Position numbers and translations under genes: made by a program
Part shown: piece by piece, positions 35,539 to 43,173 of the stretch
Layout: the number at the start of each line of letters is the position of its first letter
Position numbering within the stretch: position 1 is the first letter of the stretch
Notes under the pieces: generated by a model
What the model was told of the DNA's origin: nothing
What the model saw: only the letters and a program-made list of their open reading frames with translations
Database searches by the model: none
Assembly: GCA_963827475.1 (NCBI GenBank)
Contig: CAWHAZ010000005.1
Span: forward strand, 832,001 to 896,000
DNA: 64,000 nt
DNA from: an uncultured Chloroflexia bacterium
Lineage (GTDB): Bacteria > Chloroflexota > Limnocylindria > QHBO01
Direction: 5' to 3'

Positions 35539-36711
35539 GTGCCGCCACCCATCAGCTTCGAGGTCCGGCCCACGGGCGTCGGCCGCGCCCGCCTGGGTCG
35601 GCTGGACACGCCGCACGGCACCGTGGACACGCCGCAGTTCATGCCAGTCGGAACCCAGGCCACGGTAAAGGCGGTCACCCCGCGCGACCTCCGCCAGGCC
35701 GGAACCACCATCCTGCTCGCCAACACCTACCACCTCACCCTCCGGCCGGGAGAGGAGCGGATCGCCCGGTTGGGCGGACTGCACGAATTCATGGCCTGGG
35801 ACGGACCGATCCTCACCGACTCCGGTGGCTACCAGGTCTTCAGCCTCGGCCATCTGCGAACGGTGGACGACGATGGCGTGACCTTCGCCTCGCACCTCGA
35901 TGGATCGGCAGTCCGCCTCACCCCGGAACGGGCGATCGAGATCCAGGAGGCACTGGGCAGTGACATCGCCATGGTCCTGGACCACCTGGTCGGGTCGGAC
36001 GCGCCGCCGGGCGAGACGTCGGCGGCCATGGACCGGACGCACGCCTGGGCGGCTCGTTCCCTCGCGTCCCGGCGGCGGGCCGACCAGGCGGTGTTCGGGA
36101 TCATCCAGGGCGGGGTGGATCGCTCCCTGCGGCAGGCGTCAGCCCGCGCCATCGGCGGGCTGCCCTTCGACGGCATCGCCATCGGTGGCCTGTCGGTCGG
36201 GGAGTCGAAGGCGGACATGGCCGCGGCCCTGGAAACGGTCGCCGACGCGCTGGCCGACGACCCGCGTCCGCGCTACCTGATGGGGGTCGGGTCGCCGGAG
36301 GATTTCTTCGTCGCCATCGAGCATGGGGTGGACCTGTTCGACTGCGTGCTCCCCACCCGCCTGGCGCGCCACGGGCAGCTGTGGACCTCGGAAGGGCGTC
36401 TCCGGCTGGCGAACACGGCGGTCCAGGACGACCCCCGCCCGGTGGACGCAGCCTGCGGCTGCGAGACCTGCCGCGACTACTCCCGGGCATACCTCGCCCA
36501 CCTGTTCCGGGCCGGGGAGCTGCTCGTCCATCGGCTCACTTCGGTCCATAACCTCACCTATACTCTCGACCTGATGCGGGCCATCCGCCAGGCGCTCACG
36601 GATGGCGGCTACGAGGCCCTTCGCGACCGCGTGACAGGCCAGTTCGCGGCTCCGGACGACGACCCGCAATCAAGCAGTAACGAGCCGATACAGGACGCTG
36701 TCCGAGACTGA
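35539..36711 (+). CDS. tgt: tRNA-guanine transglycosylase
   Basis: TPQFMPVGT, NTYHL, LTDSGGYQ, GGLSVGE, FDCVLPTR and a CxCxxC zinc site. Confidence 0.97.
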   Translation: MPPPISFEVRPTGVGRARLGRLDTPHGTVDTPQFMPVGTQATVKAVTPRDLRQAGTTILLANTYHLTLRPGEERIARLGGLHEFMAWDGPILTDSGGYQVFSLGHLRTVDDDGVTFASHLDGSAVRLTPERAIEIQEALGSDIAMVLDHLVGSDAPPGETSAAMDRTHAWAARSLASRRRADQAVFGIIQGGVDRSLRQASARAIGGLPFDGIAIGGLSVGESKADMAAALETVADALADDPRPRYLMGVGSPEDFFVAIEHGVDLFDCVLPTRLARHGQLWTSEGRLRLANTAVQDDPRPVDAACGCETCRDYSRAYLAHLFRAGELLVHRLTSVHNLTYTLDLMRAIRQALTDGGYEALRDRVTGQFAAPDDDPQSSSNEPIQDAVRD

Positions 36712-36749
36712 TCCTGCGTCGGACATCGACAGGGACGAGTGATACGCCG

Positions 36750-36899
36750 ATGGGCAATCGAGACCGCCCCAAGAAGCAGCCGAAGCGCCAGAAGAAGGAC
36801 AAGGCCCACAAGGCCGCGCCGCCGATGGTCTACGAGCCCACGACGGTGGAGGTCATCAAGCCGACCCGCAAGCCGCGCGACGAACCCGACGCCGGGTGA
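36750..36899 (+). CDS. Small basic protein, 49 aa, absent from the ORF track
   Basis: [49 protein letters not shown]. Strong G/C third-position bias; fills the tgt-recA gap. Confidence 0.7.
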
Positions 36900-36943
36900 C
36901 CCGCGAAGCCACCCGAGCAGTCAGGAAGGAGCCCGGATCCCGC

Positions 36944-38056
36944 ATGGACGCGACAGCGGCCGCCCCCAAGACCAAGGCCAACGGGGAGAAGAACCCGGCC
37001 AACGGCGAGCGCGCCCGCGCGGTCGATGCGGCCATCCTCCAGATCGAGAAGCAGTTCGGGCAGGGCGCGATCATGCGGCTCGGCGACACCGGTGCGCGGA
37101 TGGCGGTCGATGTCATTCCGACCGGGTCGATCGCGCTCGACCTCGCCCTCGGCGTGGGCGGCGTGCCGCGCGGCCGGATCACGGAGATCTTCGGCCCCGA
37201 GTCGAGCGGCAAGACGACCCTGTGCTACCACATCGCCGCCAACGCCCAGAAGACCGGCGGGATCGTGGCCTTCATCGACGCCGAGCACGCGCTGGACCCG
37301 GGGTACGCCCGCAACCTGGGCGTCAACGTGGACGAGCTGCTCGTCAGCCAGCCGGACACCGGGGAGCAGGCACTCGAGATCGCGGAGACCCTCATTCGGA
37401 GCAGCGGCGTGGACGTCGTCATCGTCGACTCGGTGGCGGCCCTCGTGCCGCGGGCGGAGATCGAAGGCGAGATGGGGGACTCCTTCGTCGGCCTCCAGGC
37501 CCGGCTCATGAGCCAGGCGCTGCGCAAGCTCACCGGCGCCGTGAGCCGCTCGAACACGGCGCTGGTCTTCACCAACCAGCTGCGCGAAAAGATCGGGGTC
37601 ATGTTCGGCAACCCCGAGACCACGCCCGGCGGCCGCGCCCTGAAGTTCTACGCCTCGATCCGGATGGACATCCGTCGGATCGAGACGCTGAAGAACGGGA
37701 CCGATGCGTTCGGCAGCCGGACCCGGGTCAAGGTCGTGAAGAACAAGGTCGCCTCGCCTTTCCGGATCGCGGAGTTCGACATCCTCTACAACGAGGGCAT
37801 CTCCCGCGAGGGCGGCCTGCTCGACGTCGGGATCGCGTCGGGCGTGCTGTCGAAGACGGGCGCGTGGTTCAACTACGGCGACACCCGCCTCGGCAACGGC
37901 CGCGAGGCGGCGCGCGAGTTCCTGAAGGCCAACCCCGGCATGGCCGACGCGATCGAGGACGAGATCCGCGGCCGGGTGGCGGCCATCACCATCGGCGACG
38001 ACGGGACGGTGCCCGAGTCGGAGTCGGCGACCGCGGAGTCCGCGACCCCGGCCTGA
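36944..38056 (+). CDS. recA: Recombinase RecA
   Basis: [43 protein letters not shown] precedes the ATG. Confidence 0.98.
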
Positions 38057-38060
38057 CCGG

Positions 38061-38633
38061 GTGACAACGCCTCGGAAGCGCGCGGGGAGGGCCTCGGAGC
38101 CGAAGCCTCCGCCGGATCCCGAGCAGGCGTTCGAGATCGCGGGACGCTTCCTCGGGACGCGGCCTCGCTCTCGCTGGGAAGTCGAGCAGCGGCTTCGCCG
38201 TGCCGGCGCGTCCGACGAGGTGGTGGCCGCCACGCTCGAGCGCCTGGAGCGGATCGGGTTCGTGGACGACGAGGCCTTCGCCCGGTGGTGGGTGGAGCAG
38301 CGCGATCGCCACGCCCCGCGCGGACGGATGGCGCTCGAATCTGAGTTGCGGGCCAAGCGGCTGTCGCCGGCGGTCATCGCGTCGCTGCGGGACGCGCCGG
38401 ACGGGGAGCTGCCGGCCACCGATGACGAGCGGGCGGCCGCCGCGCTTGACCGGCACCTGAAGGGACGGCCGCTGCCAGAGGACCCGAAGGCGCTCCAGCG
38501 GCTCGGGATGTTCCTCGTGAGACGCGGCTTCGAGCCGGGCACGGCGCGGCGCGTCCTCCAGGCAGCTTCCGCCGAAAGTACTGGTGCCGAAAGTACTGCC
38601 GGAGGGGGTCGTTCCGCCGCGGACGAGGACTAG
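38061..38633 (+). CDS. recX: Regulatory protein RecX
   Basis: RPRSRWEV, GFVDDEAFA, ELRAK, FLVRRGF; directly follows recA. Confidence 0.88.
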   Translation: MTTPRKRAGRASEPKPPPDPEQAFEIAGRFLGTRPRSRWEVEQRLRRAGASDEVVAATLERLERIGFVDDEAFARWWVEQRDRHAPRGRMALESELRAKRLSPAVIASLRDAPDGELPATDDERAAAALDRHLKGRPLPEDPKALQRLGMFLVRRGFEPGTARRVLQAASAESTGAESTAGGGRSAADED

Positions 38634-38675: not shown

Positions 38676-38762
38676 CTGAAAAAGGCAAACCTGCCGCGAG
38701 GTGGGGACGCAAAGCCAAGGGTCTCGTGGTCGAACCCCACGAGACAGCCCGGCCGCCAGAAT
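38676..38762 (+). ncRNA. c-di-GMP-I (GEMM-I) riboswitch
   Basis: GGCAAAC-CTGCC-GCGA-GGTGG-GGACGCAAAGCC-AAGGGTCTCGTGG...CCACGAGACAGCCCGGCCGCC fits the recalled GEMM-I layout: GNRA-capped P2, GACGCAAAGC junction, P3. Confidence 0.88.
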
Positions 38763-38793
38763 GCCCTCGCATCATTCTGTGAAGGGGAGAGTG

Positions 38794-40485
38794 ATGCAGG
38801 CAGTCAGCACCGCAGGCGCGGATGTCGACGGTCGACGCGACCGCGCCGCCGACCGCGCTCTGGTAACCCACATCGAGCTTCCCGCCGGTCCTGTTGCACG
38901 GCTGCGGATCCTCTTCGGCGTGTCCTGGGAATACTTCCGATCGGGCCCTTCATCCGGCGGGAGTCGGCCCTTTGGGCGTCCGCATCGCTTTGCGACTGCC
39001 CTGACCGCCTTTGCGCTCTTCGCCTCGGTCGTGGCGCCTTCCGCATCCATGGGCGCGACCTACGATCCGGCCACCGATCCGTACGCGATGTCCAACACGA
39101 CCCTCTTGATGGGCGCCGCCGCCTGGTGGCAGGCGGGATACACGGGCGCCGGGGTGGACGTCGCGGTCATCGACACGGGAGTCAACCCGGTCGAGGGACT
39201 GGCCACTCCCGGCAAGATCGTCTACGGCCCCGACCTGTCCCTGGAATCGCAGGCCGACGCCTACCGGCACCTCGACACCAATGGGCACGGGACGTTCATG
39301 GCGGGCCTGATCGCCGGCCGGGATTCCGGACTCCAGCAGCCGTACGCCTCCGCTCCGGCGTCGGCCTACCGGGGTGTCGCCCCGGATGCCCGAGTCGTGA
39401 GCCTCAAGGTGGGCGTCGCGGACGGCGGCGTCGATGTCTCGCAGGTGATCGCGGCCATCGACTGGGTCGTCCAGCATCGGTACGACAACGGGATGAACAT
39501 CCGCGTCATCAACCTGTCCTACGGGACGAACTCGACCCAGGATGCGATCTTCGATCCGCTGTCGTTCGCCGCCGAGCAGGCGTGGAAGAAGGGGATCGTG
39601 GTCGTGGCGGCCGGGGGCAACGCGGGCTTCCAGCGGCACATGAACAACGCGCCGGCCCTCGCCAACCCGGCGAATAACCGCTACCTGCTGGCCGTCGGCT
39701 CGACCGACTCGCTCGGCACCGCTGTGCTCGCCGACGACGTCGTCCCGGCGTTCTCGCCGTGGCCGAAGCGCGGCGCGACGAGGGGTGTCGACCTGGTCGC
39801 CCCGGGTGTCCGCCTCCAGGGCCTGCGCGTCCCGAACAGCTACATCGACCTCAACTACCCCGCGGGACAGCTCGGTGATCGCTTCTTCCGGGGCAGCGGC
39901 ACGTCGGAGTCGGCCGCACTCGTTTCGGGCGCCGTGGCGCTCGTCCTGCAGAAGTACCCCGACGCCACGCCGGACCAGGTCAAGGCGCTGCTCATGGGCA
40001 GCGGGTACGAGATCAATGCCAAGGCGCAGGCCATCGGCGGCGGTGAGGTCCAACTCACTCAGGCGCTCACCATGAACCTGCCGATCTCCGTGCAGATCTG
40101 GCCGTCCTCGGTCGGTACCGGATCGCTCGAGCTGGCCCGCGGCACGGACCACGTCTCCGACGATGGGGTCGTGCTGTCCGGCGAGCAGGACATCTTCGGC
40201 CACGAATTCAATTCGCCGGCCATGGCCGCTCTCGAAGCCGCAGGCAACTCGTGGTCCGGTGGCGTCTGGAACGGCAACAGCTGGTCGGGCAACTCGTGGT
40301 CCGGCAACTCGTGGTCCGGCAACAGCTGGAGTGGGAACAGCTGGTCGGGCAACTCGTGGTCCGGCAACAGCTGGAGTGGGAACAGCTGGTCGGGCAACTC
40401 GTGGTCCGGCAACAGCTGGAGTGGGAACAGCTGGTCGGGCAACTCGTGGTCCGGCAACAGCTGGAGCACGGGCGGCTGGAACTAG
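38794..40485 (+). CDS. S8 subtilase with C-terminal (GNSWS)n Trp-pentapeptide tail
   Basis: Catalytic motifs VAVIDTG, NGHGTFMAG, AAGGN, GSGTSES. Internal hydrophobic signal/TM segment. AAGGGGAG precedes ATG 38794. Confidence 0.9.
   Translation: MQAVSTAGADVDGRRDRAADRALVTHIELPAGPVARLRILFGVSWEYFRSGPSSGGSRPFGRPHRFATALTAFALFASVVAPSASMGATYDPATDPYAMSNTTLLMGAAAWWQAGYTGAGVDVAVIDTGVNPVEGLATPGKIVYGPDLSLESQADAYRHLDTNGHGTFMAGLIAGRDSGLQQPYASAPASAYRGVAPDARVVSLKVGVADGGVDVSQVIAAIDWVVQHRYDNGMNIRVINLSYGTNSTQDAIFDPLSFAAEQAWKKGIVVVAAGGNAGFQRHMNNAPALANPANNRYLLAVGSTDSLGTAVLADDVVPAFSPWPKRGATRGVDLVAPGVRLQGLRVPNSYIDLNYPAGQLGDRFFRGSGTSESAALVSGAVALVLQKYPDATPDQVKALLMGSGYEINAKAQAIGGGEVQLTQALTMNLPISVQIWPSSVGTGSLELARGTDHVSDDGVVLSGEQDIFGHEFNSPAMAALEAAGNSWSGGVWNGNSWSGNSWSGNSWSGNSWSGNSWSGNSWSGNSWSGNSWSGNSWSGNSWSGNSWSGNSWSGNSWSTGGWN
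40243..40482 (+). repeat. Coding 15-nt tandem repeat, 16 units (GNSWS, GGVWN, 13x GNSWS, TGGWN)
   Basis: Read codon by codon; includes a perfect 3x45-nt higher-order repeat at 40318-40452. Confidence 0.97.
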
Positions 40486-40518
40486 GCGGCTCAAGGCCCG
40501 GAGTGGGCTGACGACGCT

Positions 40519-43173
40519 ATGAACGGCCGCCTCGGGGAGCGCCTGCGCCACTACCCCGGTCTCGGCCGGGGCAGGACGCTTGGCGCACCGATGGCTCAGG
40601 CTGTCGTGGCTCGACTGACCCGGGTGCCGCTCGTATCGCGGGTCTGGGCCTTCGTGTTGCTGATCGACGTCGCCGCGGTGGCGGTGGCCGTCCTGGTGCT
40701 CCCCGGGCTGGAGCCCCTGGATCCGTCATGGCAGCTGCCCTGGTTCGTGCTCGCCGGCGGTTTCTGGGCCGCCGAGGCCCGCGTCATCCACTTCCATTTC
40801 CGCCGAGGGGCTCACACGTTCTCGTTGAATGAGCTCCCGCTCGTCATCGGCATGTTCCTCGCCGCTCCGCTGGACGTCGTCATCGCGCAGGTGGTGGGAT
40901 CCGCGGTGGCCCTGGCCTGGAACCGCCGGCAGCCCCCGGTCAAGCTGGCCTTCAACATCGGTTCGTTTGCGCTGTCGTCGAGCATTGGGCTCGCGGTCTT
41001 CCACATGGTCGGGTCCGGACCGATGACCGATCCATCTCGTTGGTTGGCGGCCTTCCTCGGCACGGGGATCGCGAACGTGGTGGGCGTCTTCGCGGTGGCT
41101 GCCGCGCTCACCGTGTCCGAGGGCAGCCTGGGGTTGGCAAAGCTGCGGCAGATGCTCGGCGTGTCATCGGTCGTCGCCGCCACGAACACGAGCGTGGCCC
41201 TGCTGGCGGTCATCATCGTCATCGCCGACCCGCGCGCGGCATGGCTCCTGGTCGTGCCCATCGCCACCCTCTTCTTCGGGTATCGAGCCTTCATCGGAGC
41301 GCGACAGCAGCACGAGTCCATGGAGCTCCTGTACGAGTCCACGCGCATCCTCCAGCGCACGCCCGAGCTCGACTCGGCGCTCGTCCAGCTGCTGGTCCAT
41401 AGCCGGACGATGTTCCGTGCGGAGCGCGCGGAGATCGTCATCTTCCCCGCCGAGCCGTCGGAGGCGTACCTGGTGACATCGGTGGCGGAGGACCGGACGA
41501 CGGTCATGGCGCCCGGCGACGCCGCCATCTGGAAACCACTCCACGCCTACCTGGCCGAGCACCCGAAAGCGTTCCTCCTGAACTCCACCTCCCTCGAGCT
41601 TGGCGAGGACCGCGAAGTCCGAGACGCGATGGTGGCGCCGTTGGGGACCGACGAGGGCATCGTTGGTGCGATGGTCGTGACCAACCGGCTCGGGGACGTG
41701 ACCACCTTCACCGCGGAAGATCTGCGCCTGTACGCGACGGTCGCCAGCCACGCCGGCACGGCCCTGGAGAATGGGCAGCTGGAGCGCTCGCTGACCAAGC
41801 TGTCCGTTCTGCAGGATGAGCTCAAGCACCAGGCATTTCACGACGGGCTGACCCAGCTGGCCAACCGCAGCCTGTTCCGCGAGAACGTCGATGCGCGGCT
41901 GGCCGCAATCACGCGCAGCCGGCGATCGGTAGTGATGTTCGTGGACCTCGACGATTTCAAGTTCGTGAACGACACGTACGGACACGAGGTGGGGGACGCC
42001 ATGCTGGTGGAGGTCGCGCGACGGCTCAACCTCTGCACCCGGACGGCCGATCTGACCGCTCGCCTGGGCGGCGACGAGTTCGCGATCCTGGTGGACGACC
42101 ATGCCGACCTGTCCAACGCCGAGCAGGTTGCGCAGCGCGTCACCGACTCGATCGGCCAGCCGTTCCTGATCGGGGACATCCAGACCCACGTCACCGCCAG
42201 CATCGGAATTGCCGCCGGACGGCAGGGAGGCTCGGCCGAGGACCTCCTCCGCCAGGCCGATATCGCGATGTACAGCGCCAAGGCAGCCGGAAAGGGCCGC
42301 TGGGCGGTGTACAAGGCGTCGATGCTGAAAGGCATCCAATCCCGGCATGACGCCGGCGAGGAGCTGCGCCGGGCCGTCGACCTCGGCGAGTTCGAGCTCC
42401 GCTACCAGCCGGTCGTCTCGCTCGAGTCGGGGGCGATCGTCGGCGCCGAGGCGCTGCTGCGCTGGAACCATCCCACCCGAGGCGAGGTCGAGCCGGACGA
42501 GTTCATCGGGGCCGCCGAAGACGGCGCGATCATCGTGCCCATCGGTCGCTGGGTGCTGGACGAGGCCTGTCGCCAGGCAGCGCGCTGGGGATCCGGCGAT
42601 GGATCGGGAGCGCCGTGGGTGGCCGTCAACCTCTCAGCGCGCCAGCTGCTTCACCCCACCCTCCTCGACGACGTCCGCGGCGCCATCGCCCGGTCCGGCC
42701 TGGCGCCGGCAAGCGTGGTGCTGGAGGTGACCGAGAGCGTGCTCCTGCACGACGCGGAGGCGGCGATCGCCGTCATCAGCGATCTGCGCAGGCTGGGGAT
42801 CCGGGTTGCCCTCGATGACTTCGGGACCGGATTCTCGTCGCTCAGCTACCTCCATCGGTTCCCGATCGACATCCTGAAGATCGGGCCCGGCTTCGTCGGG
42901 GTTGGGGATCGGAGCGACACCCGGTGGATCCTGACCGATGCGATCATCTCCCTCGGCAAGGCGCTTGGCCACCAGGTCGTGGCGGAGGGAGTCGAGCGCC
43001 GACATCAGGTCCAGCGCCTGAAAGCCGCCGGCTGTGAGCTGGCCCAGGGCTTCTTCTTCGCTCGGCCGCTGCACCCGGACACCCTCGCCACCCAGTTTGC
43101 GCATGACCTGGCCCAACGCCAGGGGTCGGACCGGATGGTGCAGTCGGAGGTCGGCGTAGACCAGGCCGCGTAG
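40519..43173 (+). CDS. Multi-TM sensor - GAF - GGDEF - EAL protein
   Basis: About 6-7 N-terminal TM helices, GAF-like segment, HDGLTQLANR, DLDDFK.VND.YGH..GD, RTAD I-site plus GGDEF, EALLRW, DDFGTGFSSL, VAEGVE. Confidence 0.92.
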   Translation: MNGRLGERLRHYPGLGRGRTLGAPMAQAVVARLTRVPLVSRVWAFVLLIDVAAVAVAVLVLPGLEPLDPSWQLPWFVLAGGFWAAEARVIHFHFRRGAHTFSLNELPLVIGMFLAAPLDVVIAQVVGSAVALAWNRRQPPVKLAFNIGSFALSSSIGLAVFHMVGSGPMTDPSRWLAAFLGTGIANVVGVFAVAAALTVSEGSLGLAKLRQMLGVSSVVAATNTSVALLAVIIVIADPRAAWLLVVPIATLFFGYRAFIGARQQHESMELLYESTRILQRTPELDSALVQLLVHSRTMFRAERAEIVIFPAEPSEAYLVTSVAEDRTTVMAPGDAAIWKPLHAYLAEHPKAFLLNSTSLELGEDREVRDAMVAPLGTDEGIVGAMVVTNRLGDVTTFTAEDLRLYATVASHAGTALENGQLERSLTKLSVLQDELKHQAFHDGLTQLANRSLFRENVDARLAAITRSRRSVVMFVDLDDFKFVNDTYGHEVGDAMLVEVARRLNLCTRTADLTARLGGDEFAILVDDHADLSNAEQVAQRVTDSIGQPFLIGDIQTHVTASIGIAAGRQGGSAEDLLRQADIAMYSAKAAGKGRWAVYKASMLKGIQSRHDAGEELRRAVDLGEFELRYQPVVSLESGAIVGAEALLRWNHPTRGEVEPDEFIGAAEDGAIIVPIGRWVLDEACRQAARWGSGDGSGAPWVAVNLSARQLLHPTLLDDVRGAIARSGLAPASVVLEVTESVLLHDAEAAIAVISDLRRLGIRVALDDFGTGFSSLSYLHRFPIDILKIGPGFVGVGDRSDTRWILTDAIISLGKALGHQVVAEGVERRHQVQRLKAAGCELAQGFFFARPLHPDTLATQFAHDLAQRQGSDRMVQSEVGVDQAA

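Follow-up and report, generated by a model that had tools for sequence, protein, structure and literature searches.

A conserved tryptophan pentapeptide tail on a predicted exported subtilase encoded beside a membrane sensor in an uncultured Chloroflexia bacterium

What is a tail with a tryptophan at every fifth residue doing at the end of a subtilase? The question is raised by a 64,000-nucleotide stretch of DNA from an uncultured Chloroflexia soil bacterium (assembly GCA_963827475.1, contig CAWHAZ010000005.1, positions 832,001 to 896,000 of the forward strand; the whole stretch is referred to below as the window), in which the last 80 codons of an S8 subtilase gene form a tandem array. An original prediction, made from the letters of this DNA, had described the array and proposed that selection acts on its peptide. 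We find that the tail is kept by nearly all close homologs and that the gene for a membrane sensor directly follows the protease gene at most related loci. This pairing, which was absent from the original prediction, is the strongest contextual fact about the tail. Our reading, which is tentative, is that the tail may work outside the cytoplasm as a multivalent Trp module and so retain the protease at the envelope, next to that sensor.

The tail and the selection acting on it

Positions 40243-40482, forward strand: Trp pentapeptide-repeat tail of 16 units, in frame with the open reading frame (ORF) 38701-40485 and followed by the stop codon at 40483-40485.
Positions 40303-40466, forward strand: exact 45-nucleotide (three-unit) periodic block inside the tail array, a trace of recent expansion.

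The last 80 residues of the S8 subtilase consist of 16 pentapeptides, fourteen of them GNSWS, with GGVWN as the second and TGGWN as the last, such that the protein ends in GNSWSTGGWN. As originally predicted, Trp occupies position 4 in all 16 units, and TCG/TCC and AGC/AGT serine codons are mixed at a constant peptide. Serine at position 3 is encoded by TCG in six units and AGC in eight, and serine at position 5 by TCC in six, TCG in four, AGT in three and AGC in one. The three identical 45-nt copies at 40318-40452 were also confirmed; the exact 45-nt period is even longer, spanning 164 nt (40303-40466), and TRF gives the same array. The run of W at every fifth residue is not due to chance, because a six-frame scan of the whole 1.92-Mb genome returned the tail as the sole run of at least five W at five-residue spacing. 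The only other Trp-at-five run in the genome consists of four WRPTP units in an unrelated frame (contig C5:661098-661145).

The count of 16 units in the window rests on the assembly, as no contig from public sequencing runs spans 40243-40482. The shared fraction of sampled words is 0.42 for the best DNA run and 0.21 for an RNA-library run, and their contigs are short and break inside the array. Arrays of 16-18 units are also found in independent assemblies of relatives (P0003, L012, L015, L057, and L058).

Orthologs do not lack the tail, as the original prediction had allowed that they might. Among the best 120 of 7590 homologous proteins with E ≤ 1e-10, 119 end in a W-every-five tail, and the sole exception (P0008), which is 99% identical, carries a frame-shift within the array. 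In these 119 close homologs a tail of 80 residues is commonest (55 proteins), followed by 85 (22) and 90 (12), within a range of 40-115, and the protein nearly always stops one residue past the last W, as it does in matches to the tail alone. The tail is also present at 23 of 24 related genome loci, the 24th being cut by a contig end. At the DNA level, the 12 GNSWS units of locus L012 are spelled by 11 distinct DNA strings and the 13 GSSWS units of L017 by 10, and a comparison of tail codons between the window and L012 gives 47 identical, 24 synonymous and 9 non-synonymous. Differing DNA strings and mostly synonymous change at constant units indicate that selection acts on the peptide, which bears out the proposal made from the window alone. 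Judged from these alignments, the tail is a real C-terminal protein module under selection, in which purifying selection keeps Trp, the Gly at W+2 and the neighboring small hydroxyl residues.

A logo of 72 diverse S8 representatives gives the family consensus x-[S/T]-W-[S/T]-G. Trp is present in 100% of units, W+2 is Gly in 81% and Ala in 10%, W-1 and W+1 are Ser, Thr or Ala in about 80%, and W+3 is variable (S 22%, R 17%, N 14%). The Asn ladder that had been suggested is not a feature of the family, since the Asn position is the variable one. In this set, the tails hold 9-37 units (median 17), with a net charge per unit from -1 to +1.

The tail alone was searched against 1.84 billion representatives, and 74 of the 150 best matches examined were S8 proteins with a W run, mostly C-terminal. 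Another 61 of these matches were non-S8 proteins with W runs, which were not counted as family; by eye, most look like short fragments or translations of simple repeats (VVWCG, LVWSG, LAWLG). A family-blind census for a DNA pattern of eight TGG at 15-nt spacing matched 51 of 401 Chloroflexota genomes, where a backwards control pattern matched many too. Twenty of the 30 loci examined were simple repeats in short ORFs and only the 10 long-ORF cases were used, all ten of which proved to be S8 C-termini.

Related patterns were seen in other settings. A second group of proteins, 415-510 residues long and devoid of Pfam domains (P0228, P0232, P0241, P0279, P0310, P0362, and P0364), has 4-17 similar units (xxSWxG, xDPWxG) near the N-terminus. 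In three more distant S8 proteases (L030, L042, and L053; 31-37% identical), the terminal Trp pentapeptides follow a different register (GSVNW, DSLNW, NSTSW), and the surrounding 1.5 kb contain no sensor gene. An Atlas protein look-up of the tail returned unnamed clusters at 0.89-0.90 plus one 36% hexapeptide-repeat lead.

The longest exact in-register repeat measures 119 nt in the window and 150 nt in L015, compared with 15-44 nt at the other loci. Close relatives with sensors 84-92% identical carry 7, 7, 8, 16 and 16 units, two family members carry 16 and 18, and the number drifts from 7 to 21 among close relatives. Long exact repeats together with differing unit counts in close relatives therefore point to recent expansion and a drifting unit number, as had been predicted from the perfect block. 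As read from these sequences, the array expanded recently in the window by copying of the 45-nt three-unit block, and it gains and loses units by slippage or unequal recombination. Separately, frame-shifts in or near the array and in neighboring genes of near-identical relatives (P0008; L001 7453-7716; L015) look like assembly errors, not biology.

The 16-unit tails of actinobacterial and other clades are heterogeneous and align gap-free, with features specific to position, namely GGxWN as the second unit, an irregular unit 9 (SCxFS or SADWT) and a distinctive final pair. Units of the same index are more alike than those of different index (0.56 vs 0.43 at non-Trp positions). This positional identity, taken together with the recent expansion, suggests a tail that is in part a domain of defined length and in part a homogenizing repeat. 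The actinobacterial 16-unit tails (L004-L010, L013, and L014) share a conserved ninth unit, S-C-x-F-S, with Phe for Trp plus a Cys in mid-array.

The protease and its paired sensor gene

Positions 38794-40485, forward strand: S8 subtilase gene, 563 residues from the ATG at 38794 as in P0001 (100% identical); the ORF is open from a GTG at 38701 (594 residues).
Positions 38983-39054, forward strand: N-terminal hydrophobic segment (ORF residues about 95-118), a putative signal peptide or signal anchor of the Sec type, with ATYDP of the mature enzyme after it.
Positions 39145-40002, forward strand: catalytic subtilase domain with D158, H196, N307 and S402 (first bases 39172, 39286, 39619 and 39904).
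Positions 40003-40242, forward strand: conserved C-terminal sub-domain and helix into the tail (GSLELARG.DH...GE.DIFG...MA.LEA), with conserved columns in two alignments and an AlphaFold2 predicted local distance difference test (pLDDT) score of about 77-89.
Positions 40486-40518, forward strand: 33-nt spacer between protease and sensor genes, with no terminator-like site.
Positions 40519-43173, forward strand: membrane sensor gene (884 residues), encoding a multi-pass membrane domain, GAF (319-418), GGDEF (439-593) and EAL (614-850), assigned from Pfam and hydropathy.

Residue numbers of the protease refer to the 594-residue ORF; P0001 starts at Met32. Residues 149-434 match PF00082 (E 8e-40, 137.4 bits against a gathering cut-off of 21.8), and the triad is found in subtilase order together with the oxyanion Asn: D158 (IDTG), H196 (GHGT), N307 (GGNAG) and S402 (GTSES). 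Alignments of 86 and 48 sequences show no variation in the D, H and S columns. The sole hydrophobic segment of the protein (residues 97-115) lies just ahead of ATYDP, and its position is conserved in homologs; it is probably a Sec signal peptide or signal anchor, with a cleavage site that we infer. From these features the protease is predicted to be exported and catalytically intact. Hydropathy found no C-terminal hydrophobic segment, and thus the layout of motif, hydrophobic helix and basic tail that defines C-terminal sorting signals of the LPXTG, PEP-CTERM and GlyGly-CTERM type does not occur at this protein end. The I9 propeptide is absent from the clade of the window protease and present in actinobacterial relatives. 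The nearest named relatives are metagenome-assembled genomes labeled Chloroflexia or Candidatus Limnocylindria, followed by Actinomycetota, and the nearest solved structures are archaeal subtilisin-like proteases (E about 2e-27), none of which covers the tail.

Two further observations concern this enzyme. In Limnocylindria-type enzymes a long conserved stretch (residues 32-94, 38794-38982; MQAVS...DR...LRILFGVSWEYF...) precedes the signal-like segment, which may be a signal anchor, not a cleaved signal. The protease is also only 66-67% identical to its L002, L003 and L011 orthologs, compared with much higher values for the genes around it (recA 89-97%, tgt 80-91%, sensor 84-92%); by this comparison it would seem to evolve much faster than its neighbors, or to have been exchanged.

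The downstream gene encodes a protein with hydrophobic segments between residues 33 and 261, about eight helices by reading, connected by very short outer loops, and this membrane domain matches no Pfam family. The translation (41950-42000 region) retains intact GGDEF, EAL and DDFGTG motifs, together with an RxxD site five residues before GGDEF. Since these motifs are intact, the sensor could both make and break cyclic diguanylate (c-di-GMP).

At 21 of 24 related loci, or 21 of the 22 that can be assessed, the gene immediately after the protease gene encodes a homologous membrane domain: two of the remaining three stop at a contig edge, and only L021 is truly devoid of a sensor. The output domain differs by clade, being GGDEF-EAL at 12 loci and PAS-histidine kinase at nine actinobacterial loci, and the membrane domains of the two types are homologous (24% identity over 194 residues, E 9e-11). 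Among 100 database homologs of the membrane domain, most are GAF-GGDEF-EAL proteins, a few have GGDEF only, and two are histidine kinases. In the reciprocal direction, a profile of the membrane domain gave 23 matches in 151 Chloroflexota genomes. All nine of the best (eight of them outside the window genome) are immediately preceded by an S8 gene that encodes a Trp tail, and none of the 14 weaker ones is. The wider, family-blind sample has a sensor within 1.5 kb of 6 of 10 tailed S8 genes. The window genome itself holds one tailed protease and one such sensor. Genome G164 (loci L060, L075, L077, and L047) holds three protease-sensor pairs, with the unit flavors GSTWS, GQ[S/T]WS and NNSWS; no simple match was seen by eye between unit flavor and sensor outer loops. 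A fourth tailed protease in G164 (GQSWS) has no sensor within 1.5 kb.

The sensor is the only neighbor conserved across clades, and by gene order the protease and sensor genes are a conserved two-gene unit. Immediately ahead of the protease gene and on the same strand come tgt, recA and recX (35539-38633), an order kept in Limnocylindria-type loci only.

What the tail may do

We tentatively favor a role for the tail in keeping the protease at the envelope. The protease would be exported, which would place the tail outside the cytoplasmic membrane, where it could act as a multivalent aromatic 'Velcro' of many weak Trp contacts. Such contacts might hold the enzyme at the envelope beside the loop-poor membrane sensor, with the tail occupying the place of the transmembrane anchor in mycosin-type subtilases. 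Protease and sensor might then act as one signaling device controlling c-di-GMP.

Several findings weigh against this role. The tail is hydrophilic overall (mean Kyte-Doolittle -1.2), and none of the predictions locates it at the envelope or on the sensor. When the sensor membrane domain (residues 25-300, 84-row alignment) was modeled in complex with the mature protease (86-row alignment), both runs scored 0.00, which counts neither way. Unit number varies from 7 to 21 among relatives whose sensors are 84-92% identical, indicating that tail length is not tuned to the sensor, and 4 of 10 more distant tailed S8 genes, plus L021, have no sensor within reach, indicating that the tail can exist without this partner. 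The range of net charge per unit is a poor fit to one simple electrostatic wall or membrane ligand. Finally, enzymes of the subtilisin type generally tolerate a large hydrophobic or aromatic residue at P1, and a flexible tail with an aromatic at every fifth position would be a good substrate for them; the tail should therefore be folded, protected, or meant to be cut.

A possible fold of the tail is a Trp-centered pentapeptide-repeat beta-helix, the right-handed quadrilateral of Rfr and Qnr proteins, with Trp in the central, inward position and four units per coil, so that 16 units make four coils. The tail would then serve as a rigid spacer or as a rod for docking. The proposal concerns the fold and could coexist with a function at the envelope; we consider it unlikely. 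Its period of five residues is correct, the modal tail of 80 residues (55 of the 119 close homologs) equals 16 units, the first two units and the last are conserved like caps, and the greater likeness of same-index units agrees with it. A phmmer search of the 80-residue tail against 177,635 PDB sequences returned only four chains at E ≤ 10, all of them Qnr pentapeptide-repeat proteins, in whose alignments the tail W falls on the central L/F/W position and the G on i+2. However, these matches are non-significant (E 0.075-0.44), a hint of pattern likeness, and the heterogeneous tail of L005 found no PDB match at the same threshold. No Pfam family was matched at E ≤ 10 by the tail with its 31 upstream residues, including the pentapeptide-repeat families and W_rich_C. 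The i-2 position, which would be buried, is variable, with A/C/S/T/V in only 43% of units and Arg in 17%, and the 72 diverse proteins show no preference for multiples of four units.

Structure prediction of the monomer, proposed originally as a check, also gives the helix no support; a beta-solenoid or cross-beta fiber, as first suggested, is still a possible form of the tail. With an 86-sequence alignment, AlphaFold2 folded the catalytic domain well (predicted template modeling score 0.86) and gave the first tail units a pLDDT of about 72, and the rest of the tail (model residues 414-476) scored 20-46, which amounts to no confident fold for most of it. A second model, of L005 with its 16-unit heterogeneous tail (48-row alignment), is uninformative on the tail, as its mean pLDDT was 43.6 and even the catalytic domain was unfolded. 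Were a Trp-core beta-helix to be true, the pentapeptide-repeat fold would gain a new core residue and a new cellular location.

The tail might instead be a self-associating low-complexity module, with aromatic 'stickers' in a Gly/Ser/Asn spacer, as in the Nanog tryptophan repeat (WR) or the kinked segments of FUS type. By this analogy it would cluster the protease into oligomers, a surface layer or reversible cross-beta assemblies, an idea that we hold to be doubtful. The every-fifth-Trp pattern resembles that of Nanog WR, and S-W-S-G resembles segments of the S-Y-S-G-Y-S type. The shortest natural tails, of 7-8 units, are near the limit of eight Trp for Nanog activity given in an excerpt of PMC5446312. 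The lack of a confident monomer fold in the predictions would also fit a tail that orders only upon association. However, the likeness to Nanog is one of pattern and not of homology, Arg- or Asp-rich units would weaken homotypic stacking, and the strict pairing with a sensor gene is left unexplained.

Another possibility, which we regard as improbable, is that the tail is a substrate, cut after Trp by its own or a neighboring protease molecule into many pentapeptides or as a shortening 'fuse', and read by the adjacent sensor. The P1 preference noted above agrees with this, as does a terminal tail that is predicted to be flexible. The sensor is almost devoid of extracytoplasmic loops, making a small or membrane-active ligand plausible, and each of the three G164 pairs has its own unit flavor. 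Against cleavage, mixed unit types and position-specific irregular units in many tails fit a domain better than a set of identical products, and the conservation of the first and last units looks structural. Genes for tailoring, export or immunity, of the kind expected for a multi-core precursor of a ribosomally synthesized and post-translationally modified peptide, were not found conserved at the loci across clades, the neighbors being tgt, recA and recX here and others in other clades. The original suggestion of a multi-copy precursor processed by its own subtilase thus gains no support, as no such genes are conserved nearby and units vary within and between proteins.

A wider proposal, to which we likewise give little weight, is that the protease and the loop-poor sensor of eight transmembrane helices form an undescribed extracytoplasmic signaling device. 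The tail would be either its message, cut after Trp into pentapeptides, or its tether, a multivalent ligand docking at the membrane interface. The sensor would translate the state of the tail into turnover of c-di-GMP or, in the actinobacterial version, into histidine-kinase output, and paralogous pairs with different unit flavors in one genome could be insulated channels. If either the Trp 'Velcro' or a cleavable signal is true, it would provide a first handle on the input of a large class of sensors devoid of extracytoplasmic domains, of both the GGDEF-EAL and the histidine-kinase type. Because the genes are so strictly paired, any cultured carrier would allow a direct test.

It is very improbable that the array is a neutral or artefactual simple repeat, arising by assembly error or tolerated as low-complexity junk at a protein end: relatives from similar assemblies (P0008, L001, and L015) do show frame-shifts in or near it and the unit number in the window is known from assembly only, but conservation spans two phyla and hundreds of protein clusters, identical units differ only synonymously, the reading frame is fixed through to the stop codon and like arrays occur in independent assemblies; for the module itself the idea is already contradicted, the exact unit count being the sole exception.

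Comparison with known systems

Thousands of predicted subtilases in soil Actinomycetota and Chloroflexota carry the tail, and no domain library names it. In the full-text literature (supplementary files and subscription journals being outside its coverage) no paper was found for the tail motif (GNSWS, SWSGNSW), and no related paper for a Trp pentapeptide repeat at a subtilisin-like C-terminus.

The pentapeptide-repeat proteins (PF00805 and relatives; Qnr, MfpA and Rfr-type) have in common with the tail a strict five-residue period and one large hydrophobic residue per unit. They differ in that the tail has Trp in place of Leu or Phe, matches no hidden Markov model of these families, and yields no helix from AlphaFold2. 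Measured against their A(D/N)LXX-type pattern, which has a hydrophobic residue at the center and a small one at i-2, W is central in 100% of tail units, and the i-2 position is variable and often charged. Pentapeptide-repeat proteins are also cytoplasmic DNA mimics or lumenal proteins, whereas this tail would be extracytoplasmic and is borne on a protease.

Aromatic-rich C-terminal repeats hold exported Gram-positive enzymes at the envelope in the case of choline-binding repeats, GW modules and WxL domains. The units of these modules and of the Trp-rich C-terminal domain W_rich_C (PF07483) are 20-80 residues long, compared with five in the tail, and none is matched by the tail in Pfam. W_rich_C has been recorded on a cyanobacterial subtilisin, according to an excerpt of PMC2605481.

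Nanog WR of vertebrates has Trp at every fifth residue in a context rich in Ser, Asn, Thr and Gln, a likeness of pattern only to the 16 of 16 units seen here. In an excerpt of PMC5446312, how strongly Nanog forms homo- and heterodimers is set by its number of Trp, and activity falls sharply below eight Trp. Nanog WR, a nuclear module of eukaryotes with about ten units, is unrelated by descent to the tail, which has a near-invariant Gly at W+2 and sits on a predicted exported enzyme. By analogy, Nanog WR could serve as a working model of multivalent binding through Trp.

The best NCBIfam match of the protease is to the mycosins of type VII secretion (TIGR03921), with 138.8 bits, which is below the cut-off of 278.75. 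Like the mycosins, the window protease is a putatively exported S8 enzyme with a C-terminal element after the catalytic domain and, within its clade, no classical propeptide. It differs from them in having no C-terminal transmembrane helix and no ESX genes nearby, and it carries the Trp tail in the place of the anchor. This comparison suggests that, as in the mycosins, the protease may work beside a membrane complex.

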